In this document: positions 5,005 to 46,074 of the stretch, one piece after another
Layout: each line of letters starts with the position of its first letter
How positions within the stretch are numbered: the first letter of the stretch is position 1
Assembly (NCBI RefSeq): GCF_963921235.1
Contig: NC_086108.1
Location: 19,406,001 to 19,470,000, forward strand
Direction: 5' to 3'
Source of the DNA: Mobula hypostoma
Lineage: Eukaryota
Length of the DNA stretch: 64,000 bases
Notes under the pieces: generated by a model
The model's input: the letters and a program-made list of their open reading frames with translations, nothing else
The model's database searches: none
What the model was told of the DNA's origin: nothing
Program-made: the position numbers and the translations under genes

Positions 5005-6005
5005 GGTCAACGACACCACTATTGTTGGTCAAATCAAAGGTGGTATAAAAACAACCTCTCACTCTGTATCAGCAAGACCAAGGAGATGACAATGACTTCA
5101 GGGGGAGGAGACCAGAGGTCCATGACCTTCTACATATCAGGAGATCTGAGATGGAGAAGGTCAGCAACTTTAAATTCCTCAGTGTTATCAATTCAGAGGA
5201 CCTGCCCTGGTCCCAGCACACAAGTGCAACTACAAAGACAGTGCCTCTACTTTCTTAGGCTGTGAAGATTCTGCATACAACCTAAGACTTTGACAAACTT
5301 ATATAGATGTGTGGTGGAGAGTATATTGACTATTGCATGATACAGAAACATCAATGCCCTTGTACAGAAAAGCCGACAAAAAGTAGTGGATATGACCCAC
5401 TACTTTACATCACACGTAAAGCCCTCCCCACCGCTGAACACATCTACATGGAGCAATGCCCCAGGAAAGCAGCATCCATCATCGAAGACCCCCACCATCC
5501 AGGCCATGTTCACTTCTCAAAGTTGCTGGTGAATGCAGCTGGCCAGGCAGCATCTCTAGGAAGAGGTATAGTCGACGATTCAGGTCGAGACCCTTCTCAG
5601 CCTGAAACGTCGACTGTACCTCTTCCTAGAGATGCTGCCTGGCCTGCTGCGTTCACCAGCAACTTTGATGTCTGTTGCTTGAATTTCCAGCATCTGCAGA
5701 ATTCCTGTTGTTTGCGTTATACCCACAATCAATGGACTCACTTTCAAGGACTCTTCATCTCATGTTCTCAAAATTATTGCTTATATATTTATTATTTCTT
5801 TTTCTTTCTTTTTGTATTTGCAGTTTGTTGGTGTTTTTTTTAAGTTTTTTTTGCACACTGGTTGTTTGCCCGTCCTGTTGGTCGTGGTCTTTCACTGATT
5901 CTGTTGCATTTCTTTCATTTACTATGATGGCGCACAAGAGAAAGAATCTCAGGGTTGTACATGGTGACATACGTACTTTAATAATATATTTACTTTGAAC
6001 TTTGA
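5005..6005 (+). mobile_element. Rex1/Babar-type LINE 3' fragment interrupted by a fold-back PLE insertion
   Basis: SKTKEM..., FKFL-like and KAASIIEDPHHPGH motifs; ...tttactttgaactttga tail; collinear with 56683-57190. Confidence 0.75.
5517..5718. mobile_element. Fold-back mini-PLE (inverted pLTR termini)
   Basis: Left arm aagttgctggtgaatgcagctggccaggcagcatctctaggaagagg... is the reverse complement of the right arm ...cctcttcctagagatgctgcctggcctgctgcgttcaccagcaactt. The right arm runs on to the terminal gaattcctgttgtttgcgtt. Confidence 0.85.
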
Positions 6006-6201
6006 CGATCCAGTGCCCTACCCTCATCTACCCTTTTAATTTCTTCAAAGAACTAAAAGATTCGTCAAGCACAACTTTCCATATCAAGCAATTCCAGTTA
6101 AGAAATTTACAGCCTTACTAAAGAAAATTTTATTTTGGCCTAAACACGAACACATTGCATCACAGCACATCTATGGGGGAAAAAAAAAACATGGACTAAT
6201 A

Positions 6202-6975
6202 CAGGGGTCCCCAAGCTTCTTTGCACCGCGGACTGGTTTAATATTGACAATATTCTTGCGGACCGGCTGACCAAGGGGTGGTACTTAAGTTGGGTTAAAC
6301 TCACCTCAACGTGTCTTTTACAGTTAGGGTTGCCAACTTTCTCACTCCCAAATAAGGGACAAAAGTAGCAGTCAAATCCCAGGACACTTTACCCCAGGGA
6401 AGACTACCATGACCATGAAGCCTTCCGCGGGCACCTGTGTGTGCATGTGTGATGTGCAGATGTGCCGATTTTTTCCCCCCACAAATTGGTTTTGCCTTCA
6501 TCTTCCCAACTACACTGTACATACATTATTTCTACTTTATATTGGATGTGTATTTATCATATCCTTCCTGCTTTTACTATATGTTAGTGTTATTTATTTT
6601 CGGTGTTATGTGTTATTTGGTATGATTTGTTAGGTTATTTTTTGGGTCTGGGAACGCTCAAAAATTTTTCCTATATAAATTAATGGTAATTGCTTCTTCG
6701 CTTGACGCCATTTCGGCACGGAAGGTTTCATAGGAACGCTCTACCTTAGTGGGGGAAATACGAGACAAGGGCTGTCCCCTATGGGATAAACCAATTTAGC
6801 CCAATATACGGGATGTCCCGGCAAATACAAGACAGTTGGCAACCCTATGTTCAAGTTCAACAGTGCGTGACAGGGAAAGAGGAAAGATGCAGCTGACTCA
6901 TATCGTTTCCTCACAGCCCGGTAGCACGCTTTGCGGCCCGGTACTGGTCCGCGGACCAGTGGCTGGGGACCGCTG
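6202..6975. mobile_element. Non-autonomous hAT (Charlie-like) element, composite
   Basis: TIRs caggggtcccca / tggggaccgctg. Perfect 8-bp TSD gactaata at 6194-6201 and 6976-6983. Confidence 0.9.
6325..6847. mobile_element. Inner TIR element (TAGGGTTGCCA-type, hAT-like) containing a Tigger end fragment
   Basis: Perfect 14-bp TIR tagggttgccaact / agttggcaacccta. Internal ~6510-6755 is the reverse complement of the end of the Tigger-like element at 45508-47404. Confidence 0.8.
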
Positions 6976-7829
6976 GACTAATAGGATCATTCTGAGACCT
7001 GGCCCCGCCATGCACAGATCAAAATGGGGAACAAAATATATTTATTCACAACTGTGGCTCATCTCAACACATGTAAAATTCTAAAGCCAAAGCAATGTGC
7101 ACAATGATAGGTTACCAACATCAAGTAATTTGAATCCATCATAAGGAGCAACCTCATCCTTTACAAAAACACATTTAGCCCAAAAGTACCAAGATGGAAT
7201 AAATACGACACAGCAATTACTTTGCCCCATTGGAGAATCTGCTGAGCTTACTTAATGTTTGAATGGATTCATTTAGAAATCTACAGCTTGAAAGTATCAT
7301 TATATTGATTAGATTGTTAAGAATGTGCTGGATGATTAATATTTGTAATGAGGAATAAAGACAGCTGAATATAAACATGCAATTAAAAACATATTCTGAT
7401 AGGTTAATAAATATTAAACTACATTAGACAATGAAATTAAAACAGAAAAGCCAGAAAAGCAAAGAAATTTTTTCTGAACATTTGTAGAAGTCGCAGTGTT
7501 ATCCCCTACTTTGTAAAGCTCAAGACAGCTGCAATCAATTAACAGTGACCGTGTTCATAAAGCAGTCCGCTTGGGCAATGAGTAACAATTGCTGCATTCC
7601 ACTACCATTTATTGAATACTGTAGAGCCCATCTCAACTTCCTCATACATTTCACTTCCAGCACTACTTGTGACTGCTGTCAACACCATCAGGAGGGAACA
7701 CTCCAAAGAAACAACTTACAATCAGCTTTCACAACATGACCTCTCTGTGCATTCATTCAGAAGCTCTGTACACAAGTCAAGCTTTCATGAAATACAGTTA
7801 CAAAAGGATTTGAATTCAGATACAAATCT

Positions 7830-11218: not shown

Positions 11219-11252
11219 AATCACTGATTACATCACACTACTATTAACTTTA

Positions 11253-11475
11253 ACAACAGGAATTCTGCAGATGCTGGAAATTCAAGCAACACACATCAAA
11301 GTTGCTGGTGAACGCAGCAGGCCAGGCAGCGTCTCTAGGAAGAGGTACAGTCGACGTTTCAGGCCGAGACCCTTCATCAAGTTCTGACAAAGGGTCTCAG
11401 CCTAAAACGTTGACTGTACCTCTTCCTAGAGATGCTGCCTGGCCTGCTGCATTCACCAGCAACTTTGATGTGTGT
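11253..11475. mobile_element. Fold-back mini-PLE with two degenerate hammerhead cores
   Basis: ~190-nt near-perfect palindrome centred near 11381. TSD tactattaacttta (11239-11252) / tactatgaacttta (11476-11489). Confidence 0.88.
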
Positions 11476-12289
11476 TACTATGAACTTTATCTTTTTTTGT
11501 TCTGATGATTCTGTTTCTTGTAAATATTTGTGCATAACTTATGTTTAATTTGTTTGTTCTTGTAAATGCTGCTTATCTGATGCTATTTCCCCATGATGCT
11601 GCTGTAATTTTTTCATTGCACCTGTGCATAAATGCACTTATGCAAAAGACAACTCCACTTTGAATTTGAGTACGTGTCTGTTTTGTGAGGGGGCGGGGGG
11701 GAGCAGAAGAAAGAGAAGACCCTTACAATTAATTTATTGACAACTATTCTTTGCAAAAGATTGTGTTGCTTCACATTGGCTGACATCACTTATCTTGGGA
11801 GTATGGTTAGCCTCACACGAGCAGATCTCCAGCGTTGTCTTCCAGCATACGATTTGCAGAGCTGGGTGCAATTTTATTCCATAAGAGTGCCAGTATCTCA
11901 CTCAGCCACCATGGGTCTCCTTACATCTGGGATTCACAAACTTTTTCATGCCATGGACCCCAACCATCAACCCAAGGAACCCCTGCCTTACATTGCCGGA
12001 AAATTTTGTGTTTAGCTGTTCAAGGGATTCTAGTGATATTCCCTTTGCAAGTTGCATTACTGAGTTAGACTCACAATGCTTTCAGCAGGAGTTAAAAAGA
12101 TGGAAATCTGAAGTAAAAACACCAAGTGTTGGTAACACTAGACAAAGTCAGTCAGCTTCTGAACAAAGAAACAGTTAAAATTTCATGTCAGATGTCAGAT
12201 AACCCTTATCAAAACAGTTTGCCAGTTCAGTATTTCAGACCACAAACCACCATGAAAGGATAACCTTGCTCCATCTGAAAGTTTATGTA

Positions 12290-13660: not shown

Positions 13661-14582
13661 TTTTCATGAATAAATTAATAGCAGATGATCATACTTGCAT
13701 AGTATCTCATATAATGAAAGTAAAATGTAATATTAATAAATTGATCACAGTTTATCGAGAACACAAATGCTAAATCATTATTCAATTTCTTCACTTTCAC
13801 TGTATTTTTTAATAATAAGAAACTTTTTATAACTACTCACCTTACTTTTGTTCTTTCTTCTCCAGAAGTCCATTCAGAGCCTGATTCTACCCTAATAATA
13901 TGAACTTGAAGTGTAACAAGGTCATGCTGTTTGTAGAAATCTGATAGAGATATACAAGAGATAGATTTTTTTATATAAAGGTTTCCTTTGTTTCAATATA
14001 GGATGGGAGTTGAGATATGACTAGTAGTGTGATTGCATTGTAGGTGGCAGAAATTGTGGAGGATCATTTGTTCAATGCAAAAAGGTATTGGGGCAAAAGA
14101 AGAGGACCAGGGGAACTATAATGCTGGTCTACTTGGGGAAAAAGGGGGCCAGATCTGACATGCAAGAACTGGAAGGGCTATTTGTGAGCACAGAATGCAA
14201 ACATTTCTTTAGTTAGGGTTGAAGGAACAGGACACCTTATCCTGAATTACACATCAAATACACACCCACACTTTCCAAAATGCATGACAAAAATACTTAA
14301 TGTGAATTCCCTTCTCTCCACCATAACTGCTGAGTCACAGCGTAATCCATCCCATACAATGTTCAATCTGAATCACCATACACTCAGGAAGGAGAGTCAC
14401 GGTGGTAACATCCCAACCCACAGATCTGTGGGCTTTAAACCACTGAGTGGGGAAGCATACGTCTGATACTTGGATACTCACTTAGTATCGAGCCTGTTGT
14501 TCATCCAGGCACAATTAAAACATGCATGAAGACAAACTAACTGTTCAATAACAGTACAAGAAAAACAGATCACTTTTCCCTC

Positions 14583-14687
14583 AACAACAGGAATTCTGCA
14601 GATGCTGGAAATTCAAGCAACGCACATCAAAGTTGCTGGTGAACGGAACTTTCACCAGCAACTTTGATGTGTGTTGCTTGAATTTCC
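14583..14687. mobile_element. Minimal fold-back PLE terminus (hammerhead deleted)
   Basis: 37-nt arms at 14607-14643 and 14651-14687 with one mismatch and a 7-nt loop. Confidence 0.85.
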
Positions 14688-14782
14688 TTAAGTTTGTTTT
14701 GACACAGTGAGATCATAGCAGATCCATGTTCCAATTTTTCTACCCTCATCTTTTCCTTAAAACCCTTAATAATACTGATTGT

Positions 14783-19599: not shown

Positions 19600-22500
19600 A
19601 GAAAACTACATTTAATCTGATGGCAGCAGAGTTAATAGCAGTGCTCAATGGAAGCTGGATTCTACAGGCACCTGAACCAGCGAATGCGACCTGCGACCTG
19701 CCCCAAGTGACTCAGCCGAGGAAGCAGCTAACTTGGGCGGCATAAGAGAAAGCAGAAACTCGGCAAGGGAGCTGGGGTGCTAGTCAGGCTGAGAGCTAAC
19801 CCAGCCAGACTGGCAGTACCATGACTTTTCCTGGCCAATGTCCGCTCGCTGGATAATAGATTGGACCCACTGATACTGAAAATTTACACGCAGAAAGATG
19901 TAAAACTGCTGTTTTCTGGTTTTCACTGAAATATGGTTAACTAACAATATGTCCCAACTCGATGTTTCAACCTGACGGGATGACTCCCTATTGGGGGAAT
20001 CGAAGGAGGTAGAATCTGTGTATACATTAACCAAGACTGGTGCACAATCTCACTGTGACAGTTAGCAGTCACTGTACTGGGGAAAGAGAGCATCTTCCAA
20101 TTAAGTGCCAATAAAATTATCTGCCCAGGGAGTTTACTGTTGTGTACATCCTCACAAATTCCAGTGCCAAGGTCGCTCTGGGAGAGCTTTACAGTATCAT
20201 CGCTCTCCACAAAACAAACATCAGGACAGTCTCTCCATTATTGCAGGAGACTTCAATCAGGGTAACATTTGACCCATGGTCACCAGGGGAACAAAAAGAC
20301 TCGACCATGTCTGTACAAACAGATGTGATACTTACAAAGCCATCCCCTGCCCTCATCTTGGCCTCTGATCACATCTCCATGATGTTAATCCCAGCATACA
20401 GACTGATGCTGAAAATGCAGAAACTAGTCAAGAGAACCATCACTGTATGGCCGAACAAGGCAATCTCTATGTTTTAGGACTGGCAGATGTTCAAGGAGGC
20501 CATCACAAGCAGAGGAACCTTGAGAAATATGCCTCATCTGTCATCGGCTACATTAGTAAATGTGCAGATGACATTGGTACTAGAAGCCCTGGCTGAACGT
20601 AGAGATGTGCTCCCTACTAAAAGCTGCCTTCAAGTCCAGTGACAGAACAGTTCTCAGAGCACCCTGGAGAAGCCTCATCTCAGGCATCAAGCGGGCAAAG
20701 ACTGCCTACGCATGAAAAATTCAGGAATGCCAATCTGCTAACGATCCACAGTATGCATGGTTGGGCATCAAGGGCATTCATGAATATGCAAGCGAAAACA
20801 GTGCTGACTAGCAGTGATGCCTCCCTCCATGATGCTCTAAACAATTTTATGCACGCTTCTAGGTGGCATGCAACTCAACACCAGCCACGAAAGCTTCTAC
20901 CTCGAACAGCAATAGATGTGAGAAAGACTTAGCGATCTTGTCGTGAGAGGCCCCTTGGGTAAGAGTGACCATAATATGGTGGAATTCTTCATTAACATGG
21001 AGAGTGACGTAGTTAATTCAGAAACAAAGGTTCTGAACTTAAAGAGGGGTAACTTTGAAGGTATGAGACGTGAATTAGCTAAGATAGACTGGCAAATGAC
21101 ACTTCAAGGATTGACGGTGGATATGCAATGGCAGGCATTTAAAGGTTGCATGGATGAACTACAACAATTGTTCATCCCAGTTTGGCAAAAGAATAAATCA
21201 AGGAAGGTAGTGCACCCATGGCTGACAAGAGAAATTAGGGATAGTATCAATTCCAAAGAAGTAGCATACAAATTAGCCAGAGAAAGTGGCTCACCTGAGG
21301 ACTGGGAGAAATTCAGAGTTCAGCAGAGGAGGACAAAGGGCTTAATTAGGAAGGGGAAAAAAGATTATGAGAGAAAACTGGCAGAGAACATAAAAACGGA
21401 CTGTAAAAGCTTTTATAGATATGTAAAAAGGAAAAGACTGATAAAGACAAATGTAGGTCCCCTGCAAACAGAAACAGGTGAATTGATTATGGGGAGCAAG
21501 GACATGGCAGACCAATTGAATAATTACTTTGGTTCTGTCTTCACTAAGGAGGACATAAATAATCTTCCAGAAATAGTAAGGGACAGAGGGTCCAGTGAGA
21601 TGGAGGAACTGAGCGAAATACATGTTAGTAGGGAAGTGGTGTTAGGTAAATTGAAGGGATTGAAGGCAGATAAATCCCCAGGGCCAGATGGTCTGCATCC
21701 CAGAGTGCTTAAGGAAGTGGCCCAAGAAATAGTGGACGCATTAGTGATAATTTTTCAAAACTCGTTAGATTCTGGACTAGTTCCTGAGGATTGGAGGGTG
21801 GCTAATGTAACCCCACTTTTTAAAAAAGGAGGGAGAGAGAAACCGGGGAATTATAGGCCGGTTAGCCTAACGTCGGTGGTGGGGAAACTGCTGGAGCCAG
21901 TTATCAAAGATGTGATAACAGCACATTTGGAAAGCGGTGAAATGATCGGACAAAGTCAGCATGGATTTGTGAAAGGAAAATCATGTCTGACGAATCTCAT
22001 AGAATTTTTTGAGTTGTAACTAGTAGAGTGGATAGGGGAGAACCAGTGGATGTGGTATATTTGGATTTTCAAAAGGCTTTTGACAAGGTCCCACACAGGA
22101 GATTAGTGTGCAAACTTAAAGCACACGGTATTGGGGGTAAGGTATTGGTGTGGGTGGAGAATTGGTTAGCAGACAGGAAGCAAAGAGTGGGAATAAACGG
22201 GACCTTTTCAGAATGGCAGGCGGTGACTAGTGGGGTACCGCAAGGCTCAGTGCTGGGACCCCAGTTGTTTACAATATATATTAATGACTTGGATGAGGGA
22301 ATTAAATGCAGCATCTCCAAGTTTGCGGATGACACAAAGCTGGGTGGCAGTGTTAGCAGTGAGGAGGATGCTAAGAGGATGCAGGGTGACTTGGATAGGT
22401 TGGGTGAGTGGGCAAACTCATGGCAGATGCAATTTAATGTGGATAAATGTGAAGTTATCCACTTTGGTGGCAAAAATAGGAAAACAGATTATTATCTGAA

Positions 22501-24730
22501 TGGTGGCCGATTAGGAAAAGGAGAGGTGCAACGAGACCTGGGTGTCATTATACACCAGTCATTGAAAGTGGGCATGCAGGTACAGCAGGCGGTGAAAAAG
22601 GCGAACGGTATGCTGGCATTTATAGCGAGAGGATTCGAGTACAGGAGCAGGGAGGTACTACTGCAGTTGTACAAGGCCTTGGTGAGACCACACCTGGAGT
22701 ATTGTGTGCAGTTTTGGTCCCCTAATCTGAGGAAAGACATCTTTGCCATAGAGGGAGTACAAAGAAGGTTCACCAGATTGATTCCTGGGATGGCAGGTCT
22801 TTCATAAGAAGAAAGACTGGATGAACTGGGCTTGTACTCGTTGGAATTTAGAAGATTAAGGGGGGATCTGATTGAAACGTATAAGATCCTAAAGGGATTG
22901 GACAGGCTAGATGCGGGAAGATTGTTCCCGATGTTGGGGAGGTCCAGAACGAGGGGTCACAGTTTGAGGATAGAGGGGAAGCCTTTTAGGACCGAGATTA
23001 GGAAAAACTTCTTCACACAGAGAGTGGTGAATCTGTGGAATTCTCTGCCACAGCAAACTGTTGAGGCCAGTTCATTAGCTATGTTTAAAAGGAAGTTAGA
23101 TATGACCCTTGTGGCTACAGGGGTCAGGGGGTATGGAGGGAAGGCTGGGTTCTGAGTTGGATGATCAGCCATGATCATAATAAATGGCGGTGCAGGCTCG
23201 AAGGGCCGAATGGCCTATTCCTGCACCTATTTTCTATGTTTCTATGAGTCAACCCTGCACCCCCACCCCCCAATGCTGCCAAGCCAGGCTGAGTACTCAC
23301 AGTGTGCAGACCAGCTCAATGACATCTTCAACACATCGTTCATCCAGGCTGCAGTCCCCACGTGCTTCAAATCAGCCACCATAACCATGGTACCAACAAA
23401 CTCTACACCTTCAGAACTAAAAGACTACCACCCAGTGGCAATGACGCTAATTATCATGAAGTGCTTTGAATGGCTCATGATGGCAAAACATCAAAAACCC
23501 CATTCCTGCCACACTGGTCACTCACCAACATGGTTACCAACAGAACCACTCTACAACCGATGCCTTGGTAACTATTATGCACTTGGCTCTGACACACCTG
23601 GAAAACGAAGACATTTATATGTCAGAATGGGTTTCAGTTCAGCATTCAACACTATTGTCCCACAGACCCTGGTGAACAAACACCTACTCTCGGCCTAAAT
23701 ACATCACTGTGCAATTGGATGGTGGATTTGCAAACGAACAGGCCTCACACAGTCAGGATGCACAACTGCTCCGCCCCATCATCCTCAACACAGGTGCACC
23801 CGAGGGCCATATGCTGAGCCCATTGCTGTACACTATTCACACGCGACTGCACAGCCAAACACTCGAGGGATCACGTGTGAAGTTCAGCGATGACACAGCA
23901 GTGGTGGGGCTCATCAACAACAATACTGAGAGGAGGACAATCTCGAGGTCTGGTAGCAGACAAATAACCTCTTCCTCAATATCAACAAGACAAAGGAGAT
24001 AGCTGTCGACCTGGAGAACTCACGCCCTGCTTTACATCTGCAGCACAGCATTGGAAACTCCATTCTTGGGAGTGCACAACCCACACAAACATCCATGGTC
24101 CCAGAACACATCCTACACGGTCCAGAAAGCTCACCAATGCTTCTTTCTGAGGCTGAATAACGCTGGACTATGCACATCAAAGCTCACGTCAGATGTGCAG
24201 TTGAGCACATCCAAACATGCTGCATCACTGCTTGTGATGGAAACTGCACTGTGGCAGACAGGAAAGCTCTTCAAGGGGCAGTCAAAACTGGGCAATTCGT
24301 TACTGGCACCAGCCTACCAGCCATCAAGGACACGTATACAGAAAGGTGACTGAAAAGGCCAGGAACGATATGAAGGATCCCATATAGCCTGCTCAGGGAT
24401 TATTTGTCCCACTTCCATCAGGGAGACAGTAACCATACATCCACAGCAGGACCACCTGACTCAAACTGTTACTTTGCCCAAGGAATAAGGCTGATCAACA
24501 TGTCCACCACTAAACTCCACACTACTTTATTAGCTCCCATCAGTCACCTTATGTAGATACAGCCTAGCATCACTTCATGGACATACAATCAATCTATATA
24601 AGCTATCTGATGTATTTATAGTTTTTTTTATTATTACTGTTGTGTTCTTTTTATTTTTTTTTAAATGCTGGAGTAGCATTATTTCACTCTCCTTACACTT
24701 GTGTAGAGGAAATTACAGTAAACAATTTTG
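19600..24730 (+). mobile_element. Degraded Rex1/Babar-type LINE interrupted by a younger CR1
   Basis: EN remnants before 20930. After 23246: CADQLNDIFNTS..VPTCFKSATI..DYHPVAMT..MKCFEWL, FSSAFNTI, LNTGAPEG, KFSDDT. Confidence 0.8.
20931..23246 (+). mobile_element. 5'-truncated CR1 (HER1-like) LINE, ORF2 pseudogene
   Basis: ORFs 20943-22019, 22028-22807 and 22832-23155 join into one CR1 ORF2 (KSPGPDG, NYRPVSLTS, YLDFQKAFDKVPH, GVPQGSVLGP, FADDTK). It is broken by a frameshift near 22015 and a TAA at 22805. Tail (tttctatg)n. Confidence 0.95.
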
Positions 24731-25526: not shown

Positions 25527-26618
25527 CACAAACAACAGGAATTCTGCAAATGCTGGAAATTCAAGCAACACACATCAAAGTTGCTGGTGAACGCAGCAGG
25601 CCAGGCAGCATCTGTAGGAAGAGGCGCAGTCGACGTTTCAGGCCGAGACCCTTCGTCAGGACTAACTGAAGGAAGAGTGAGTAAGGGATTTGAAAGTTGG
25701 AGGGGGAGGGGGAGATGCAAAATGATAGGAGAAGACAGGAGGGGGAGGGATAGAGCCGAGAGCTGGACAGGTAATAGGCAAAAGGGTTACGAGAGGATCA
25801 TGGGACAGGAGGTCCGGGAAGTAAGACGGGGGGGGGGGAACCCAGAGGATGGGCAAGGGGTATATTCAGAAGGACAGAGGAAGAAAAAGGAGAGTGAGAG
25901 AAAGAATGTGTGCATAAAAAAAAGTAACAGATGGGGGAAGAGGGGGAGGTGGGGCCTCAGCGGAAGTTAGAGAAGTCGATGTTCATGCCATCAGGTTGGA
26001 GACTACCCAGACAGAATATAAGGTGTTGTTCCTCCAACCTGAGTGTGGCTTCATCTTTACAGTAGAGGAGGCCGTGGACAGACATGTCAGAACAGGAATG
26101 GGACGTGGAATTAAAATGTGTGGCCACTGGGAGATCCTGCTTTCTCTGGCGGACAGAGCGTAGATGTTCAGCAAAGCAGTCTCCCAGTCTGCGTCAGGTC
26201 TCGCCAATATATAAAAGCCACATCAGGAGCACCGGACGCAGTATATCACCCCAGCCGACTCACAGGTGAAGTGTTGCCTCACCTGGAAGGACTGTTTGGG
26301 GCCCTGAATGGTGGTAAGGGAGGAAGTGTAAGGGCATGTGTAGCACTTGTTCCGCTTACATGGATAAGTGCCAGGAGGGAGATCAGTGGGGAGGGACGGG
26401 GGGGGGACGAATGGACAAGGGAGTTGCGTAGGGAGCGATCCCTGTGGAATGCAGGGGGGGGGGAGGGAAAGATGTGCTTAGTGGTGGGATTCCATTGGAG
26501 GTGGCGGAAGTTACGGAGAATAATATGTTGGACCCGGAGGCTGGTGGGGTGGCAGGTGAGGACCAGAGGAACCCTATTCCTCGTGGGGTGGTGGGAGGAT
26601 GGAGTGAGAGCAGATGTA
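25527..26618 (-). mobile_element. Penelope-like element 3' fragment with terminal repeat
   Basis: NRVPLVLTCHP...HIILRNFRHLQ...AFHRDRSLRNSLVHS and GIY-YIG-region remnants. The terminus at 25527-25670 is the source sequence of the fold-back elements. Confidence 0.9.
25628..25663 (-). ncRNA. Minimal type I hammerhead ribozyme (PLE-associated), intact core
   Basis: Minus strand AGTC-CTGACGA-AGG gtctcgg CCT-GAAACGTC^GACT: stem I AGTC/GACT, core CUGACGA and GAAA, stem II AGG/CCT, palindromic ACGT stem III, GUC cleavage triplet. Confidence 0.8.
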
Positions 26619-27968
26619 CCTTGCACTTTAGTTTGTTTTTTATGTGTGATTCATCTGTTCATTTTATCCTTACCTTCATAAGTCATCTCGTGTTACATAT
26701 GTTATGGGACTTTACACCCTGGTTTGAAGAAACTTCTCATTTCTATACACATGATATACTTTATATACATGTACTGTAGTTAAATGCTAATAAACCTCAC
26801 TTGTCATAACTGTCTTGACTGGGCCAACTGTGACAAAGAATATCCTAAAATCTTTCCTCTTCTCATATCATTGCCACTGAAGTCCATCATCATGGGTCAT
26901 CAAAATCAATGATGGTGCACTGACAAAATCCAAACCTTGGCTTGGCTTCCTCAACTCTCCACACTATCTAAATTAACAAAATTAATTTTCTTATATTCAA
27001 TAGTGGATAAACAGAATTTTCCTCCAGCTAAGCTCCAGCTAAACAAAAAACATGTGCTCTAATCCCTGCCATCCGCTCCATTCTCATGCACTTGATACAG
27101 GATCCCTTCCTGGCCACCCAGGAAATCTCTGGATATGTTCCAACTTTGAAGGGATGGTATAAATGCAAGTTATTGTTGGTGGTGCTCTTCTGGTTCCAAA
27201 CCCAAATGACGAGTCATCTGTTCTTCTGCCAACATGTTGATTGCAGTTCAGTTGGTTTGGCTCACTTCTCTGGATTCTAAATTACTCGAGTTCACCTCAA
27301 TCACAACACAGAAGAGTGTAACATTGCATTAAAACCTAAAGCAATTCTCTGAGGATGCAAACACTTCCTTCTGCAACTGATTTACCTTTCTGAGATTGAA
27401 CACAGGCTAGAATAGTAACAATAACCAAGCCAACACTTCAAAAACACCAACAAGCTTTTCCAAGAACAGTAATCCAAAGTGGCAGGGGAAAGGAAGAAAG
27501 GAAGAGTTGAAAACATCAAACCAATTTTACAAGTCTCGCTTCTGTCAAGAGACACCTTCAAAAATAACAGTGGAATAAGCCTTCAGGAGAAATTGTGGAA
27601 TAAGTTGCTTTAAACTTGGGTAAGACCTACATACCTGCACTTGAAGTTATAAAACATCTGTGTCTATTTAATGTCTGTCACATTCCCTTCAGGGCATTTT
27701 CAAAGATTCTACAATAAATTAACAACTTCTGATATTTCGTCATTGGCTTATTGCAGAAAATAAACAGTCATATGGACAAATGTATGTCTGCCTGCAATGA
27801 AAGTCAGGCCTGCAGTAGCATCACAGGCACATGAAATACTCCTCACCAGTGCACAATCATCTGAGTCATGAAACAACCTGGTTGTCCTCTGGACCTCTGC
27901 TCTACAACTGAAGAACTGCATTGCAATATTCTATCAAAAGAGCACCAAGAAGCAATTATGTACAAATA

Positions 27969-28021
27969 GCAGCAGAGAATTAAATCAAAATTGAATTAAT
28001 TTTGATTTAATTCTCTGCTGC
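27969..28021. repeat. Perfect 24-bp inverted repeat with 5-nt spacer
   Basis: gcagcagagaattaaatcaaaatt-gaatt-aattttgatttaattctctgctgc. Confidence 0.95.
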
Positions 28022-31000
28022 CAGTTGTATAGCATTGGCTTTTTGATTTATAGCAGACCTGAGTGCTGATAATGGCTGGGATCACCCATCTTGTAAAGAC
28101 ACTGCCCAGAAGGAGGAAATAGCAAACCACTTCTGTAGAAAATTTGCCAAGAACAATCATGATCGTGGGAGGACAGAGGATGATGGACAATGATATTAAT
28201 GATAATGATTACTTATGCCAAGGTACAGTGAAAAGCTTTAAATAATTTAAATAAAGCAATAAATAATTTCCCACTCGGGATCAATAAAGTACTTATTATT
28301 ATAATACAGATCAATCCATTACAGTAGTGAAATGAGATAGTATAAGGTAAAAAAAATAACAGAATAAAGTGTTACAGTTATGGTAAATGTGCAGTGCAGG
28401 CAGGCAATAAGATGCAAGATCATAATGAGGTAGGCGGAGGTCAAAAATCTATCATACGAGGGCTAAAAACCATAATATTCTGATGGGACATTTGTGCCCA
28501 GTGTGTGATTCCCAGAAGGCTCATCTGCAGATAATTCATTAGGAAAATTAACAAAATGTTATTGTTTATTACTGGAGAGGCTTGCTTCAGTTTAATAGGG
28601 CACCAGTGAGTTCATAACTGGAACTAAGTGACCAGTATTTGTCTGCAGTTAAGAAAGCATCTTAATTCAAAGCAATTCAGAAGAAGATCGACCAGACAGA
28701 TTTTCCAAATAGGAAAATTGCCTTATGAATAAAAGGTGAGCAGGCAAGGTTCACATACAAGAGAGGAAGGTGAGATGACTGAAATAACAAGTCGCAGAGT
28801 TGATGTTATAGATCAATGATAGCATGGTTCTTCTTTCGATTGGAGATCACTGTACAAGTCAGAGTTGAGGCAAAAAAAAGCTCTCTCCAAGCATGCTAAT
28901 GTTTACAACTCTCTTCCTCAAAAGGTATTGAATCAAAGTTATTGAAAACATTTCAAGCAAAAGATAGACAGGTACTCGATAAAAGACACAAGGTTACCCA
29001 TTGTTAGTGAGAACAGAGCTCAGGTAACAGCTGGATCACCTGAAACCTTACTGAGAAGCACAGCAGGCCAGCCTGCTCCTATTCCGAACCAATAAGGTGA
29101 ACCTTCCCATTGCACCTATGCATACATGCATTTGTGTATACGAAAATAAACTTGCCATGACGTAAATCTATTCCAATCCTCAAACAGACAGACACATTTA
29201 TTCAACACCAGTTCCACAAAATTACTTTAAATACTCTTTGTGCATTTGAATCATTTTCTGGTTAGATGAAGGCGCACTCAATTGCAGTAGCCACTCCAGA
29301 TCTAAACAAAGGTGTAATTGCAGTCCTTAGAATTAGTCTGAAATTCTTTCCATGAGTTAATATCTTTCCTTAAATAAGACCAGTACTATACACAATATGC
29401 AAGCTAGAGTCTCATCGATTCTCTAACTGAAGGATAACCACCCAAATTATGTATGCAATTCTCCTCATAAATAACATAGTTAACTTGTTAGATAGTCCTT
29501 AGCACCTTTTGTGCAATTATAAGACACTGCTGGATATTGAAAACATCAATTGCCACAGGTCTGTCCCACTGGCTAGTTGCTTGATGGCGGTGGAGCTGAA
29601 CTTGTTGTGCAGCATGTTGCTGGCAGCTACAGCCACCCAAGGAAGGCATCAGCAGCGGTGCACGGAGGCAGTAAGCAATTCAATCAACAGTACAAATGAT
29701 TGTAATCGATGCTTTTCTTGCAATCATAAGACATTGGCTAATGCAGAATACTATTAGTCTCGTTCACTAGTTCATTGGAAAGAGCATCGGCAAGGGAGTT
29801 GTGTGGCCTCAGTTGTTGCACAGACTCAGCCCTCATGCCAGAGTGTCGCCAGTTTCAGTCACCCAGGGAAGGAGATTCCAGAGCTGGTGTTGGATAAAGC
29901 TAGAGTCTGTGCTGGGTTGGGGGCTGGCCCCTCTTGTCAGTGCTGCTCTCCGGAGTTCTCTTGCTGGTAGTCTATTTGGATTGCGTTCGTCTGTGGCTAC
30001 ACCAACAATCTACAGGCCATGACACTCAGGGACTTGGGCTACATCTAATCTTTTTGCGAACTGTTCTTCTGCTGTCATAACTACGTGCTGTATGTGACTG
30101 ATGGTACTGTGTTTTTCACCGTGGCCCCAATGGAAAGCAGTTTCATTTGGCTGGATTCAAGGGCAATGACAATTAAACCTGAACTTTAAAATTGGACTTT
30201 CTCAAACTGCAGCTGCCAAGTAGGGAACAGCAGGTAACCACAAGAAAAAGGCTATTTGTGCAACCTCCCAGCTGATGAAAACTTGCCTCAACATAAATAA
30301 GGCAAAAAAAGTGGCTGGAATACAGATAGCAGTTTAGGAAACAGCTCTGTTATTCTATATTTAATTGGGTGATGTGGAAGTTGAAACAAGAGATCGGTAA
30401 GAATGCTGTATCAATGTTCATTTCATCGCAAATGCTTGCTAACGTTAAATCATGTCAATATCAAACACACTGGTTGCTACAGAAACTCTAATCCCACTGT
30501 GCCTTACTTTGTAAAAGTTATCAAAAAGATGTTCCTTCAGATTTCTGGAAAGCCATACAAGAACAGCTCTCAGTGCTTTCATTAGTATTAGTTCAGCCAT
30601 TCAGAAGCAATAGCCACCTTTGGTGCTGCAGACCTCTGCCACGCTCAGAGTTGCACCAATCCCTCTCAAATCTGCTTTTCCTCAATACCTTAAAATTAAG
30701 AAAAGTTTCAAAGTAGTTATTAATTAAAATAGTCTCTTCAGTTGGGTTCTTTCTTTGTGCAGAGGGAAATGGAACGGCACTTTTCTGGAAAGCTCCTATT
30801 TGCTCTTTGTCAAGTGCAAAGAGACTAATTCATCACCTTGGGAACCAGCTGCCTGAGCTCCTTGTGAAAACAGTGTGGGGAATTAAAATACTTTTGCTGG
30901 TACACAATCCTGTCTAGTGCTTAGACAGTAATACATTAGGAATTCCACCAGAACTTTGGAAAAATATTAACATGCATAGTACGTTTTCTGAACAAAAAGG

Positions 31001-37879: not shown

Positions 37880-40593
37880 TGAAGCACCTTCAATTACTCC
37901 AAAAGACTGAGGTTTGATAAGATACTGAAAGGCTTTTATTCGCTGTACAATACGACCTCCACAGTGAGTGTCTGCCCCCAGACTGAGGGGGAGGGGCAAG
38001 GCGAACACCTTTATACAGGATTCTGTGGGAGGAGCCACAGGGGCAGTCAACAGAGGAGTGTGTCCAGACAGGTAACTGAGTTACAACATATATACATGGT
38101 TTACCACATGCACTCCTCCTTTTTTTAAAAAGAGTCCTGCGGGGTGAAGTGACTGACAATATTTAAAATAAGTACATTTACAGGTTAAGTCTATCAGGCG
38201 GTCGAGTCCGTCGCTGTGATCTACGTAGCACTGGTGGTGATTGCACTGGTGATGGCGGTTGTGCTGGCTCCGGCCTGACATCAGGTGCCAGCACGTTAGG
38301 CATCGATAATCCCTCGTGTGTGTGCGTCGCGCCCGGTATGGGAGTGTCGTGTGGTGTCTGTATAGGGTTTGGGGTGCACGGTGTCTCGTAGGTACATACA
38401 TTGGTGGGTACGGGGTCAATAGTCACCACAGAGTGTTCAGGGTAGGGGCCTGGAGCTCCTGCGGGCGCCAGGTCGCGGATGGAGACCGTGTCCTCCCGCC
38501 CATCAGGTAAAACCACGTAGGCATACTGGGGGTTCACATGAAGTAAGTGAACCCTCTCGACTATCGGGGAGTATTTATTGCTCCTCGCATGTTTCCGGAG
38601 CAGCACTGGCCCCAGGGACATCAGCCAAGATGGTAGGGTAGAGGGTACGCGTCGAGCTGCGTGAACCTATTGATGATCTGGCTATAGTCCACGACCATCC
38701 TATTCTTCTCCCCGTTCCGAACAACCACCACCTGCGCCCTCCAAGGACTTGTGCTTGCCTCAATGACCCCCTCCCTGAGCAGCCGCTGCACCTCCGACTT
38801 AATGAAAGCTCTGTCCCCCGCGCTGTACCTCCTGCTTTTAGTTGCCACAGGTTTACAGTCGGGGGTCAGGTTGGCGAACAGCGGTGGGGGAGGGATCCTG
38901 AGGGTGGAGAGGCCGCAAGTGGTGTCGGTAGTGTAGCAGTTGGCATGATGTTGGGTGGGATGCGTGGGTCGGTGTGTGTATGTGGTCAGTAGCGGGGTAC
39001 GTGACATATCTCTACAAAACAGGATTTATGACAGTAATTGGCGGGAGGGGCCCATCATACTCCATTGTCACGCTTTTCAGGTGGCTCTGGAAGTCCAACC
39101 CCAACAGCACAGGGGCACACAGTTGAGGCAAGACCAGTAACGTAAAGTCCCGATATTCTGTGCCCTGCACCACTAGTGTCGCTACACAACTCCCCCGGAT
39201 GTCTGCTGTATGCGACCTGGAGGCCATGGTGACCCTCCGATTTACCGGCCGTATCATGAGTCCACAATGCTACACCGTGGCCGGGTGGATAAAACTCTCC
39301 GTGCTGCCTGTGTCAAACAGGCAGCTTGTCCTGCGCCCCTCCACCAGGATGTCCATCATTGATCTTGCGAGCTGGTGGGGAGCGCTTTGGTCGAGGGTCA
39401 CGGAAGCCAGGGTGGGGTCGCTGTCTTGGTCCGGCGTGGTGGGGTGCCCCGTGAGCACCCGTTGGTCGTAGGCGGTGGGAGGTGGCGCCGACCAAGATGG
39501 CCGCCCCATGTCTCGCACGTGGTGGTGGCGTGCAGGGAAGATGGCGGCAGGTAAGATGGCGACCCCCACGTCTCGCACACGGCGCTGCTCGATCCCGCTC
39601 GCGGTTTTGACTTACAGACCTTGGCGAAGTAGCCCTTCTTTCCGCAGCTGGAACAGGTAGCTTGTCGGGCCACGCAGCGTTTCCAGGGGTGCTTCTCCAG
39701 TCCGCAGAAGTAGCACTTCACGGACTCACGACTGGCTGCAGCCGAGGCCGATTCGCCGGCGGGTTGCGGGGTCTGCGGCGCTCACGAGGCCATCGGGGGA
39801 TCGTGTGCCTGGAGAGCCTCGGAGTTATGCAGAGCAGCCTCCAACGTATCAGCCAGCTCCATCGCCGAACTTAGGGTAAGATCGGCTTTTTCCAGCAGCT
39901 GCTGGCGCACGTACACTGACCCGGTCCCCGTGACGAAGGCGTCTCTCACTAGGAATTCTGCATGCTGCGCCGCCGTCAGCTCCTGGCAATTGCAGGCTCG
40001 CACGAGTGTCTGTAGGGCCCGGACAAACTCAGCACTCGATTCCCCGAGGCGTTGTTGCCGTGTCGCTAAACGGTGCTGAGCATAGACGCTGTTTATCGGC
40101 CGCAGGTATTGTCTTTTGAGTGCGTTCATTGCGCCGTCGTAGTTCGGCTGGTCTCTGATCAGTGAATAAACCCGTGGACTGACCCTGGAGAGTAGAACTC
40201 TGCGCTTCACTACGGGGTCGGTCGCTTTAATCTCCTCTGGATACGCTTCGAAGCAGGCCAGCCAGAGTTCGAAAGCGTTTCCAGCGTCAGGCATTTGCGG
40301 ATCAGGTCTAATTTTTCTGATCTCAGGGCCTGTTCCATGTTTTAAAACGTACATCGAATAAAATTGAAGCACCTTCAATTACTCCAAAAGACTGAGGTTT
40401 GGTAAGATACTGAAAGGCTTTTATTCGCTGTACAATACGACCTCCACAGTGAGTGTCTGCCCCCGGACTGAGGGGGAGGGGCAAGGCGAACACCTTTATA
40501 CAGGACTCTGTGGGAGGAGCCACAGGGGCAGTCAGCAGAGGGGTGTGTCCAGACAGGTAACCCAGTTACAACAGATATACATGGCTTACCACA
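37880..40593 (-). mobile_element. Internally deleted Ty3/Gypsy LTR retrotransposon
   Basis: 229-bp LTRs at 37880-38108 and 40365-40593 (TG...CA), 5-bp TSD GGCAC, and PPT aaaaaaaggaggag next to the 3' LTR. Contains gag with a CCHC knuckle (CYFCGLEKHPWKRC), protease (LFDTGS), RT N-terminus (SPWRAQVVVV..RMVVDY..DAYPLP) and an integrase C-terminal remnant. Confidence 0.95.
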
Positions 40594-41313: not shown

Positions 41314-41985
41314 TTAAAACAAACAAGGCCTATGAGGTGTTATGTAGTTAAACTGTTTTTTCCAGTATGAATAAAATTGTTCGAGCTTATGATTAGCAGA
41401 TGCTGTTATCTTCTCCATCTTGTGAATGTCCATTGTAATTTCCATCCATACATTTAAAGTTGGGCTCTCCTGTGATAACCATTTCCTGGTAAGGGTCTTT
41501 TTACCAGTCACCAGCAGTATATTCATTAAATATTTATCTCTTTTCAACCATTCTTGAGGTATATACCCAAAATATATGGTCTTACTCCCTAAGGGTATTT
41601 CACATTTAAAGATGTCTTGTAGGGCATTATGTATCCCACTCCAACAGTCTTTGATAACAGGGCGATCCCAGAAAATATGATAATGGTTTGCATTTTGATT
41701 TCCACAATTTCTCCAGCCAACAGGGAGGTTACTAGCATAATGGGATTTCTGAGAGAGTGTAATAAAATATCTTATCAAGTTTTTCCACCCGAACTCCCTC
41801 CTTTTTTGTGAACTGGTACACTTCCATTGATACCTCCATATTATTGTCCATTCTTCCTCAGATATTATTATCCCTCCTTCTTTCTCCCATTTTGTTTTAC
41901 TGTATGAAGTCAAATGTGTTTTAAGATTTGACAAACCCTTGAAATGCTTGAAATTATTCTACGACCGTTGTCTGAATTATATCCA
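41314..41985 (-). mobile_element. L1/Tx1-clade LINE ORF2 C-terminal fragment
   Basis: KWEKE...W...WRNCGNQNANHYHIFWD.P.I...W cysteine-rich C-terminal domain (ORF 41314-41934). Confidence 0.8.
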
Positions 41986-43535
41986 GATCATTAATATATA
42001 TGACAAATAACACTGGACCCAGTACAGATTCCTGAGGCACACCACTAGACACCGTCCTCCAATCTGACACACAGTTATCCACCACTACTCTCTGGCGTCT
42101 CCCATCCAGCCACTGCTGAATCCATTTTGTTACTTCGTTATTAATGCCTACCGATTGAATCTTCCATGTGGAACCTTGTCAAGGGCCTCACTTGAACAAC
42201 CAATGTTATAGAGTTTTTCAAGGAAGTTACTAGGAAAGTGGATGAAGGCAAGGCAGTGGATATTGTTTACATGGACTCCAGCAAGGCATTTGACAAGGTT
42301 CTGCAAGAAGGTTCAGTTCCTTGGCCCTCAAGATGAGGTGGTAGATTCTAATGGATCAACACACATCAAAGTTGCTGGTGAACGCAGCAGGCCAGGCAGC
42401 ATCTCTAGGAAGAAGTGCAGTCGACATTTCAGGCCGAGACCCTTCGTCAGGACTTCGTCTGCAACTTTGATGTGTGTTGCTTGAATTTCCAGCATCTGCA
42501 GAATTCCTGTTGTTTGCGTTTTTAGATTCTATTGGATGTTGGCTTCACAGGAGAAGCCAGAGGGTGGTGTATGGTTGTCTCTCCGACTGGAGGCATGTGA
42601 CTTGCACTGTTCCGCTGGGATAGGTGCAGGGTCTGTTGTTTGTTATCTATATCAACGATCTGGATGAGAATGTGCTGGATCAATGAGTTTTCGGATGACA
42701 CCAGGATTGGGCGTAGAGTGGACAATCAAGAAAAAACTATCCTTGCAGCGGGTTTTGGACCAGTTGGAAAAATGGCAGATGGAATTTAATGCAGACAGGT
42801 GCAAGGTGTTGCACTTCGGTAGGACTAACCAGGGTAGGTCTTACTCCATGAATGGTAGGGCACTAAGGAGTGCGGTAGAATAGTGGGATCTGGGAATACA
42901 GATCCATTATTCTTTGAAAGTGGTGTCACCAGTAGATCGTAAAGAAAGCTTCTGGAACATTGGCCTTCATAAATCAAGGAGATAGGGTATTATGTAGAAG
43001 TTGTATAAGACATTGTTGAGACCTAATTTGGAGTATTATGTACAGTTCAGGTCACCTACCTACAGGAAAAATATAAATAAGGTTAAAAGAGTGCAGAGAA
43101 AATTTAAAGGACGTTGCTGGGATTTAAAGATCTGAGTTTTCGGGAAAGGTTAAATAGGTCTTGACTTAATTCCTTGGAACACAGAAGATTGAGTGGAGGT
43201 TTGAGAGAGGTATACAAAATCGAGGGGTATAGATAGGGAAAATGCAAGTAAGCTTTTTCCACAGAGGTTGGGTGGAACTACAACTAGAGGACACGGGTTA
43301 AGAGTGAAAGTGAGAAGTTTAAGGGGAACATGAGGAGAAACTTCACTCAGAGGGTGGTGAGGGTGTGGAACGAGCTGCTCCTGCAAGTGGTAGGTTTGGG
43401 TTTGATTTTAACATGAACGGGAAGGGTATGGAGGGCTATGATCTGGGTGCAGGTGATGGGACAAGGCAGATTCATGGTTCAGCACAGAACAGATGGCACG
43501 AAGGATCTGTTTCTGCGCTGTCGTGATCTGTGACT
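41985..43535 (+). mobile_element. Degraded CR1 RT and 3' fragment with a short opposite-orientation CR1 piece at ~41985-42190
   Basis: DEGKAVDIVYMDSSKAFDKV and WQMEFNADRCKVLHFGRTNQ motifs; CR1 tail. Confidence 0.8.
42357..42522. mobile_element. Fold-back mini-PLE with near-intact hammerhead (42419-42454, minus strand)
   Basis: TSD tagattctaatggat (42342-42356) / tagattctattggat (42523-42537). Minus strand AGTCCTGACGAAGGGTCTCGGCCTGAAATGTCGACT. Confidence 0.88.
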
Positions 43536-44990: not shown

Positions 44991-45029
44991 CCAAATGAAT
45001 CCTGCATGTTTCCTGCAAAAAGAATAACC

Positions 45030-45475
45030 CAGCCCTTCGGCAGGGCTGGAGAAAAAAACTGAGTAGATTTGAAAGGTGGGAGGGAGGGGAGGGGAGAGAG
45101 AAACACCAGGTGATCGGTGAAACCTGGAGGGGGAGGAATGAAGCAGAGCTCGGAAGTTGGTGAACGAGACAGAAGGCCATGGAAGAAAGCAAAAAAGGGG
45201 AAGGAGCACCAGAGGGAGGTGATGGGAGGGCAAGGAGGAAACATGAGAAAATGATAAGGGGATGAAAATGGTGAGAAATTGATGTTCATGCCATCAGGTT
45301 GGAGCCTACCCAAATAGAAAGGTATTGGTCCTTCAACGCAAGTGTGGCCTTATCACAACAGTGGAGGAGGCCATGGATGGACATATCAGAATGGGAATGG
45401 AAAGTGGAATTAAAATGGGTGGCTACTGGGAGATCCTGCTTGTTCTGGTCGATGGAGCATAGATGCTCAACGAAT
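45030..45475 (-). mobile_element. Penelope-like element fragment
   Basis: Homologous to 3190-3800 and 25970-26170 (LQPDGMNINFS motif). Confidence 0.8.
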
Positions 45476-45737
45476 TGAATTGAATTAAATAGGCTTTATT
45501 TCTTATGCAGGTTTCCCCCGCCATCCGAAGGTAGAGCGTTCCTATGAAACGGTTCGTAAGCCAAAATGTCGTAAAGCAAAGAAGCAATTACCATTTGTAT
45601 GGGAAATTTTTGTGAGCTTTTGCAGACCCAAAAATAACCTACCAAATCATGCCAAATAACACATAAAACCGAAAATAACAGAAACATATAGTAAAAGCAG
45701 GAATGATATGATAAATAGACAGCCTATATAAAGTAGA

Positions 45738-46074
45738 GCAACACACATCAAAGTTGCTGGTGAACGCAGCAAGCCAGGCAGCATCTCCAGGAAAAGGTAC
45801 AGTCAACATTTCAGGCCGAGAAAGTGGGAGAGGAAGGGGGAGATCCAAAATGATAGGAGAAGACAGGAGGGGGAGGGATGGAGCCAAGAGCTGCAAAATG
45901 ATAGGAAAAGTACCCCACTTTCAAATCTCTTACTAACTCTTCCTTCAGTTAGTCCTGACGAAGGGTCTTGGCCTGAAACGTCGACTGTACCTCTTCCTAG
46001 AGATGCTATCTGGCCTGCTGCAACTTTGATGTGTGTTGCTTGAATTGCCAGCATCTGCAGAATTCCTGTTGTTT
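45738..46074. mobile_element. Fold-back mini-PLE inserted in the Tigger element
   Basis: Perfect 16-bp flanking repeat gcctatataaagtaga (45722-45737, 46075-46090); inverted pLTR arms. Confidence 0.9.
45951..45986 (+). ncRNA. Minimal type I hammerhead ribozyme, intact core
   Basis: AGTC-CTGACGA-AGG gtcttgg CCT-GAAACGTC^GACT; predicted cleavage between 45982 and 45983. Confidence 0.8.

Follow-up and report, generated by a model that had tools for sequence, protein, structure and literature searches.

We examined if five short inverted inserts in the genome of the ray Mobula hypostoma, each derived from the 3' end of a very abundant Penelope-like element (PLE), arose as by-products of PLE integration or represent a small parasite that moves on its own. 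The window, i.e., the whole stretch of DNA analysed, is 64,000 nt long (GCF_963921235.1, NC_086108.1, 19,406,001-19,470,000 of the forward strand). The inserts, termed fold-backs, are numbered c1 to c5 in window order; their density was 5 per 64 kb window (Poisson 95% range 1.6-11.7). The arm reference was the PLE terminus of the long copy at 25527-25670 in the window, and a "cons" coordinate is the window position minus 25526.

Results

Parent element and long copy

25530-26616, minus strand: long copy, a 5'-truncated, one-armed parent PLE with the RT-EN linker end, GIY-YIG region, 3' region, hammerhead and tail
25520-25529 (left) and 26617-26626 (right), no strand: target-site duplication (TSD) of the long copy, 10 bp, 10/10 identical
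25628-25663, minus strand: minimal hammerhead of the long copy, 4/4 helix I pairs, cut predicted at cons 106/105

The long copy in the window holds the linker and EN part only; its GIY-YIG region contains a frameshift and stops, and the stop codon at 25957-25959 is followed by a 3' region of about 430 nt. It matched ray proteins P0003 and P0005 at 74-88% (tblastn), where P0003 gave a GIY-YIG match (E=4.6e-4) and P0005 an RVT_1 match (E=1.1e-4), both under the Pfam curated cut-offs. Judged by these protein matches, the parent family is an EN+ PLE, with a C-terminal GIY-YIG after the PLE RT. The linker carries C-x4-C-x2-C, a pattern that fits the linker cysteine motif of Neptune and Nematis as described in PMC8557442, and by this motif, set against that description, the family may be closer to Neptune/Nematis than to Penelope/Poseidon. 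The window contains no full-length copy with a partial-tandem pLTR-ORF-pLTR structure. When the full ORF running on from the pLTR peptide was sought, 2 host proteins with this peptide were all that came up.

Contigs matching the 1.4-kb long copy numbered 270,423 (X1), 237,597 (X5), 17,832 (X10) and 12,183 (X9), counts that show a very high-copy family, depth here not being a copy number. Terminus-to-body depth ratios and the runs presumed to be RNA are not taken here as evidence of transcription or editing; contigs reveal neither strand nor RNA ends. No run recorded as RNA contained the stretch, a result that says nothing about expression. The 144-nt terminus alone was no more structured than its shuffles (z=-0.22). 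An exact scan for the 20-nt terminal motif gave 0 loci in viral sequences and 7 metagenome loci; the latter matched over just 20-22 nt and were judged to be chance.

Structure of the five fold-backs

5517-5718, no strand: c1; tail-less arm 5517-5596 = cons 49-128, tail arm 5595-5718 = cons 122 to the tail end (3)
11253-11475, no strand: c2; tail arm to 11379 = cons 5-132, tail-less arm from 11380 = cons 137-41
14583-14687, no strand: c3; tail arm 14583-14645 = cons 5-67, tail-less arm 14651-14687 = cons 65-29
42357-42522, no strand: c4; tail-less arm 42357-42454 = cons 40-137, tail arm from 42461 = cons 58 to the tail end (3)
45738-46074, no strand: c5; tail-less arm = cons 39-239 without 121-165, tail arm 45914-46074 = cons 175-3

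An earlier note had reported five fold-back insertions at these positions, and all were recovered, at 105-337 bp, each matching the PLE terminus twice, in opposite orientations. The arms, 37-200 nt long and therefore without any ORF, were 87-100% identical to the long copy across most of their alignments. In 5/5 inserts they lie inverted and head-to-head with the tails outward, i.e., a one-sided tail and an adjacent inverted 5'-truncated PLE copy. The tail-less arm, said in the note to start roughly 25-50 nt further in, was offset by 24-46 nt at its outer end in every insert: about 36 nt in the TSD-bearing c2, c4 and c5, 46 nt in c1 and 24 nt in c3. Its outer start fell at cons 41 (c2), 40 (c4) and 39 (c5), with c1 (49) and c3 (29) outside this 39-41 cluster.

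Two descriptions in the note needed adjustment. That the inserts consist only of two inverted PLE termini was slightly too strong; both arms are PLE, but c3, c4 and c5 hold 5-13 nt of filler. Likewise, the terminus at 25527-25670 covers the arms of c1-c4 but not of c5, which reaches cons 239, about 95 nt past 25670.

The centres differ, as the note had claimed, and all five are distinct, with either 0-2 nt of overlap (c1, c2) or 5-13 nt of filler (c3, c4, c5). The arms of c1 overlap by 2 nt and the c2 centre is blunt. The 13-nt filler of c5 (45894-45906) is locally repeated (chance 0.00015), and that of c4 (42455-42460) duplicates adjacent sequence (7 nt, chance 0.013); the repeat of the 5-nt c3 filler was not significant (chance 0.30). 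The tail-less arm reached further inward than the tail arm in 4/5 inserts (cons 128 vs 122 in c1, 137 vs 132 in c2, 137 vs 58 in c4, 239 vs 175 in c5; sign-test p=0.19), the margin in c1 and c2 being just 5-6 nt. Cons 137 is the inner end of the tail-less arm in both c2 and c4 (chance about 0.05 if ends were uniform), where the c2 end depends on one letter read as a substitution. Within c5, the tail arm lacks about 10 nt near cons 59-68 and the tail-less arm has an internal 45-nt deletion.

Target-site duplications

11239-11252 (left) and 11476-11489 (right), no strand: TSD of c2, 13/14 identical, 86% A+T
42342-42356 (left) and 42523-42537 (right), no strand: TSD of c4, 14/15 identical
45722-45737 (left) and 46075-46090 (right), no strand: TSD of c5, 16/16 identical

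The TSDs of 14, 15 and 16 bp proposed for three copies were thus borne out, with an A+T content of 69-86% across c2, c4 and c5. As a control, of 3000 random window pairs, 13 matches were reached by 1 and 14 by none. The empty c5 target has a single occurrence, in a host-repeat paralog near 6510-6750. The c4 host site is a CR1-type LINE fragment, and an empty-site comparison to CR1 paralogs with one vs two TSD copies gave 122 vs 115 and 47 vs 48, showing no clear preference. No TSD was found when sought at the flanks of c1 and c3; the c1 flanks match a host-repeat paralog which holds about 140 nt more between them.

Hammerhead cores

42419-42454, minus strand: complete minimal type I hammerhead core of c4, in the tail-less arm; in context, helix I pairs with a probability of about 0.09
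45951-45986, plus strand: complete minimal hammerhead core of c5, in the tail arm

The view that several inserts carry hammerheads held in part: besides the long copy, 2/5 inserts (c4, c5) have a complete core, but the core of c2 is damaged and c1 and c3 have none. Each insert has at most one complete core, and in no case (0/5) do two lie on the same strand. For c5, the fold-back itself is predicted to block the core, at a penalty of 30.6 kcal/mol. Rfam searches at E<=1 gave 19 matches, none to a hammerhead family; all 19 were to miRNA models, lay under the gathering scores and are explained by perfect hairpins.

No arm of the 10 stops at the ribozyme cut (cons 105/106) and 7/10 read through it, in agreement with the anole PLE system, where the main substrate is uncleaved RNA (PMC11167929). 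The hammerhead is likely a passenger of the terminal repeat. Half of the arm ends (5/10) lie between cons 122 and 137, where the 5' part of the hammerhead is structured.

Sequence decay and family-wide joints

Among arm variants, 11/28 were CpG transitions, compared to 10 CpG bases in 137 (p=2e-6); the fold-backs decay neutrally, at CpG sites. Arms of one insert differed from each other by 8-11% (6/74 in c1, 9/102 in c2, 8/73 in c5), and no derived variant was common to both arms in any insert. Divergence of tail-less arms (19/379) vs tail arms (8/309) was not significantly different (p=0.12).

Loose ends of contigs, among the 24 of 4629 listed, included window position 25529 (cons 3; 319 contigs, X1) and 25564 (cons 38; 11 contigs, X9). 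The strong loose end at 25663, whose purine-rich consensus departs from the window copy, likely represents sister subfamilies and not fold-back centres. The 15 best-supported of 1215 contig joints were all "skips" (depth <=339), with no dominant strand-change joint among them, a weak census in that not every joint was counted and contigs break in repeats. Two of the 12 joints listed start at cons 137 (depths 310 and 118, joint kind unspecified).

Discussion

We consider it likely that the five inserts are one-off, dead integration products, made from two 3'-end cDNAs primed on both target strands. Nicks made by the element enzyme, one in each target strand, would lie 14-16 nt apart; one cDNA would begin at the tail end and the second about 36-40 nt further in; both would stop early and then be joined end to end. 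The arm geometry, TSDs, unique centres, CpG decay and EN+ PLE parentage are shown. In vitro, both target strands are nicked and extended by the anole PLE protein, and its RT starts at two sites that bound the tail (PMC11167929); we infer that the ray family behaves in the same manner. Outward tails in 5/5 are expected from priming on both target 3' ends. As both arms span the same sequence, one pass over one pLTR cannot produce them, and the second cDNA may have been templated by a second RNA or by the second pLTR copy of a partial-tandem RNA; the centres may have been made by microhomology-type end joining or by RT template jumps. The in vitro work used a Poseidon and the ray linker motif is more like that of Neptune/Nematis; the mechanism would thus be carried over from one clade to another. 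Points against two-strand priming are that n=5 and that c1 and c3 have no TSD and lie outside the 39-41 start cluster. With the stop at cons 137 shared by c2 and c4 and two contig joints there, some recurrence does exist.

A single nucleic acid could instead have folded back and been copied into the second arm (snap-back or self-priming), still as a one-off by-product. Since its tail arm is 2 nt longer than the other arm and it has no TSD, c3, with its 5-nt loop, fits snap-back and is the sole copy compatible with the simple form; palindromic head-to-head PLE junctions of rotifer Penelope have been read as self-priming on an antisense template (PMC3846280), and the arm ends clustered in the structured part of the hammerhead point the same way. 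However, the extra centre sequence lies on the tail-less arm in 4/5 inserts (79 nt in c4, 64 nt in c5), which is impossible for a tail-primed cDNA, and the lack of derived variants common to both arms also speaks against it, with the power of that comparison limited by later decay; overall we regard snap-back as unlikely, though its antisense version is still compatible with these data. Collapse of longer inverted PLE pairs after insertion, with the middle deleted, would be in keeping with the 45-nt deletion in one c5 arm, by which palindromes do erode, and with the target sequence missing from c1 relative to its paralog, but it would merely place the same inverted insertion at an earlier step. 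That the assembler made the palindromes is unlikely because the arms of c1, c2 and c5 differ and TSDs frame c2, c4 and c5. Collapse and artefact together are extremely improbable.

A further possibility, for which we see a very slim chance, is that transcripts of some fold-backs are returned intact to the genome by the PLE protein, which would make these fold-backs hairpin mini-elements of a retrozyme or SINE type. The high density (5 in 64 kb), the inserts' own TSDs in 3/5, both RT start motifs in every insert and the recurrence of cons 137 in c2, c4 and two contig joints would suit such a parasite, and pLTR sequences suffice for mobilisation in trans in rotifers (PMC3846280). Against it stand five different centres and lengths, a complete core in 2/5 with that of c5 predicted to be blocked, CpG decay without compensating changes and, weakly, the lack of a dominant fold-back joint among the best 15 of 1215. 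The inserts do not fit MITEs (non-autonomous DNA transposons), which have symmetric terminal inverted repeats, uniform length and a fixed short TSD: their ends are asymmetric by 24-46 nt, their lengths variable and their TSDs 14, 15 or 16 bp or absent. Nor do they match retrozymes: the arms are inverted where head-to-tail tandem type I hammerheads would be found, and in place of a constant cleavage-bounded monomer the lengths range over 105-337 bp with no arm ending at the cut. The retrozyme-like parasite that the earlier note had offered is therefore not supported, given head-to-head arms, at most one complete core in each, 0/10 arms at the cut and five different centres; its favoured reading of repeated de novo integration, drawn from the variable centres, is supported, and integration by-products are the better explanation. 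For the subset that stops at cons 137, the first base of hammerhead helix I, there is a small chance of an origin from a defined short RNA template or as a re-copied hairpin mini-element. If this were true, a vertebrate genome would host a fold-back Penelope parasite and, with it, a very large supply of double-stranded RNA.

At several inserts per 64 kb, the genome would hold very many independent events, with both starts, TSD and centre readable within 350 bp. The fold-backs are useful as a natural read-out of the PLE mechanism, and their value lies in the data, the discovery itself being ordinary. It is possible that they are a large source of hairpin RNA. Should they be transcribed within introns or UTRs, RNA editing or dicing of their perfect stems of 37-95 bp would be likely; in Drosophila, siRNAs arise from inverted Penelope copies (PMC3681739).

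Comparison with known systems

In L1 twin priming both target strands prime RT, and microhomology joins the two cDNAs within a single TSD. The ray inserts would be alike in priming on both strands and in cDNA joining within one TSD. L1 inversions hold non-overlapping parts of one RNA; in contrast, both ray arms span the same segment, and therefore a second template copy is needed. No paper centred on stand-alone short PLE fold-backs or on PLE twin priming was found in the literature searched, most subscription papers lying outside that search.

Retrozymes are described as head-to-tail tandem repeats with canonical hammerheads, giving circles of 170-400 nt (Cervera and de la Pena 2020, PMC7229834); the ray inserts resemble them in being short, non-coding, interspersed and possibly PLE-mobilised, with a type I hammerhead, but are head-to-head, variable and mostly without a complete core. 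The type I minimal core with palindromic helix III of the ray PLE is like that described for metazoan PLE minimal hammerheads (Cervera and de la Pena 2014, PMC4209133). That study reports paired minimal hammerheads about 100-700 bp apart on opposite strands in Schistosoma, and ties dispersed motifs to truncated PLEs (PMC4209133), whereas at most one complete core survives per ray insert.

Anole Poseidon PAc (Frangieh et al. 2024, PMC11167929) is similar in its two tail-bounding RT starts, use of both strands, A+T-rich targets and hammerhead cleavage that is not needed; it differs in host and probably in PLE clade. The main text of PMC11167929 contains no description of stand-alone short fold-back products. 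The EN+ PLE insertion unit is described as a 5'-truncated copy with an inverted 5'-truncated copy and a one-sided tail of 30-40 bp (Craig et al. 2021, PMC8557442), and rotifer Pen2a_Av combines an inverted pLTR with a tail of 31 bp and a 9-bp TSD (Arkhipova et al. 2013, PMC3846280). Both PMC8557442 and PMC11167929 describe the way in which PLEs form their tandem and inverted arrangements as unsettled. The fold-backs share with these canonical units the head-to-head pair, one-sided tail, short TSD or microhomology junction and heavy 5' truncation; they differ in having no ORF, TSDs of 14-16 bp (8-10 bp in the rotifer examples) and a far higher density. The published standard for PLEs is an inverted copy with a one-sided tail, of which the five inserts are the shortest form.

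Results

The fold-backs were found to be real and ordinary: they are the shortest members of a known insertion type of Penelope-like elements (PLEs). All five inserts reported in the earlier note (c1 to c5) exist, and their arms were mapped on a one-armed PLE copy (the long copy).

Arms of the fold-backs and the reference copy (cons, window position minus 25526; the tail arm keeps the terminal tail)
25530-26616, minus strand: long copy of the PLE, 5'-truncated, 1.09 kb, source of the reference terminus
5517-5718 (c1): tail arm cons 3-122, tail-less arm cons 49-128
11253-11475 (c2): tail arm cons 5-132, tail-less arm cons 41-137
14583-14687 (c3): tail arm cons 5-67, tail-less arm cons 29-65
42357-42522 (c4): tail arm cons 3-58, tail-less arm cons 40-137
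45738-46074 (c5): tail arm cons 3-175, tail-less arm cons 39-239, without cons 121-165

The tails pointed outward in 5/5 fold-backs, and both arms of a fold-back covered the same part of the PLE terminus. The tail-less arm reached further inward in four (by 6 nt in c1, 5 in c2, 79 in c4 and 64 in c5), the tail arm being longer only in c3; this asymmetry was not significant (sign test, p=0.19). Target-site duplications (TSDs) of 14, 15 and 16 bp had been claimed for three inserts and were recovered at c2 (13/14 identical), c4 (14/15) and c5 (16/16), compared with 13 matches in 1/3000 and 14 in 0/3000 random pairs; the c5 target sequence is single copy in a paralogous host repeat. No TSD was found at the flanks of c1 and c3, and those of c1 are short of about 140 nt relative to the host paralog. 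In the TSD-bearing copies the first position of the tail-less arm lay between cons 39 and cons 41, some 36 nt in from the end of the tail; in the others it was cons 29 (c3) and cons 49 (c1). Loose contig ends on the long copy included cons 3 and cons 38 among the 24 listed of 4629.

At 46015-46030 roughly 10 nt (near cons 59-68) are missing from the c5 tail arm, and the first letters of the c4 tail arm at 42458-42470 are compatible with the same deletion junction; the tail-less arms of both are intact there. If this deletion were a source allele, each insert would have had two templates, the support amounting to two extra letters.

The centres differed between copies, as first noticed, and 5/5 were distinct: a 2-nt overlap in c1, a blunt joint in c2 and filler in c3-c5. 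Repetition of nearby sequence in the filler exceeded chance for c5 (0.00015) and c4 (0.013) and did not for c3 (0.30). Locally repeated filler is a mark of microhomology-type end joining or reverse transcriptase (RT) slippage. An inner stop at cons 137 was shared by c2 and c4 (chance about 0.05), and two contig joints of unspecified kind, among 12 listed, also began there. No dominant strand-change joint appeared in the top 15 of 1215, a weak result with joints incompletely counted. Recurrence at cons 137 is the remaining lead.

The parent of the fold-backs is an EN+ PLE. The long copy is flanked by a perfect 10-bp TSD, and its ORF remnant (26282-26617) had 10/11 protein neighbours from Mobula and Hypanus, which places the window in a ray-like cartilaginous fish. 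It aligned to ray proteins at 74-88%, and these had weak Pfam similarity, under the curated cut-offs, to GIY-YIG (E=4.6e-4) and RT (E=1.1e-4); the GIY-YIG frame of the long copy is broken, ending at 25957-25959. Its C-x4-C-x2-C linker motif may point toward Neptune/Nematis, as far as the description in PMC8557442 extends. Contigs matching a 1.4-kb long-copy stretch numbered 12,183 to 270,423 per run in four public runs, and therefore the family is very abundant, contig depth not being equal to copy number. Hammerhead helix I is immediately preceded on its 5' side by a pyrimidine tract plus AG (25663-25680, minus strand), and P0012 and P0013, both predicted Mobula proteins, include the peptide of the terminal repeat (pLTR) beginning at this place, which suggests that the PLE terminus was exonised through a splice acceptor.

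The fold-back arms are decaying like inert DNA: CpG transitions made up 11/28 arm variants (p=2e-6) and no derived variant was common to both arms of any insert in c1-c5. Several inserts had been thought to carry hammerheads; a complete core was confined to c4, c5 and the long copy, and c1-c3 were without one. For the c5 core, locking by the fold-back was predicted (30.6 kcal/mol), and for the c4 core weak accessibility (4.5 kcal/mol). No fold-back end was set by the ribozyme: the predicted cleavage site (cons 105/106) was the stopping point of 0/10 arms and was read through by 7/10.

Other repeats in the window
3116-4640: PLE copy of greater age, matching the long copy at about 73%, tail different; two adjoining internal mini-inversions (3564-3642, 3648-3734) with mutually alike 21-nt spacers
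14013-14072 and 45060-45477: smaller PLE fragments
20922-23155 and 48317-50392: long LINE RT remnants with RVT_1 matches, presumably CR1-type
27953-28037: A+T-rich palindrome (88% between 40-nt arms) dissimilar to the PLE; no TSD found
38081-40378, minus strand: broken-up ORFs that include one zinc-knuckle-like and one protease/RT-like segment and look, by eye, like the remains of an LTR retrotransposon; no Pfam match for one ORF
41981-42665: CR1-type LINE fragment hosting c4, itself a fold-back (41981-42102 matches 42550-42665 in inverted orientation at 70%; 42171-42195 and 42277-42301 form a second inverted pair)
46421-46656: hairpin with a 12-nt spacer between 112-nt arms of 86% complementarity, BLASTN showing no relation to the PLE; possibly an old MITE-like insert, no TSD found by scan

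Discussion

PMC11167929 shows in vitro that an anole PLE protein, predicted to be a dimer, nicks and extends both target strands and prefers A+T-rich DNA; its RT has two adjacent internal start sites bounding the tail, and hammerhead cleavage is dispensable. Carried over to the fold-backs, nicks staggered by 14-16 nt on the two target strands would supply two primers. The first cDNA would begin at the tail end. The second would begin about 36-40 nt further in, templated by another RNA or by the other pLTR of the partial-tandem RNA already in use. The two cDNAs would halt early and then be joined. The product would be a pair of head-to-head arms with the tail on one side only, a single TSD and a centre of its own.

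Alternatively, a single tail-primed cDNA could snap back upon itself to make the second arm. This fits c3, but it must leave the tail arm longer, as was seen only there, and it is contradicted by c4 and by c5, each taken alone. Self-priming on an antisense template is a published alternative (PMC3846280) with which the five copies are compatible; the c3 geometry, the common cons 137 stop in c2 and c4, and the joints at cons 137 were counted against two-strand priming.

The earlier note also allowed for a retrozyme-like parasite. Retrozymes are defined in PMC7229834 by head-to-tail tandem ribozyme repeats yielding circles, and the fold-backs differ on the two features tested, having neither head-to-tail tandem hammerheads nor a cut-bounded monomer of constant length. 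No paper dedicated to stand-alone short PLE fold-backs was found in a search that left most subscription papers outside. Schistosoma has paired minimal hammerheads on opposite strands, 100-700 bp apart (PMC4209133), Chlamydomonas has very short de novo PLE insertions (median 128 bp; PMC9977147), and in Drosophila siRNAs arise from inverted Penelope copies (PMC3681739). According to PMC8557442 and PMC3846280, PLEs typically have an inverted 5'-truncated copy and a one-sided tail of 30-40 bp, and the fold-backs share both of these.
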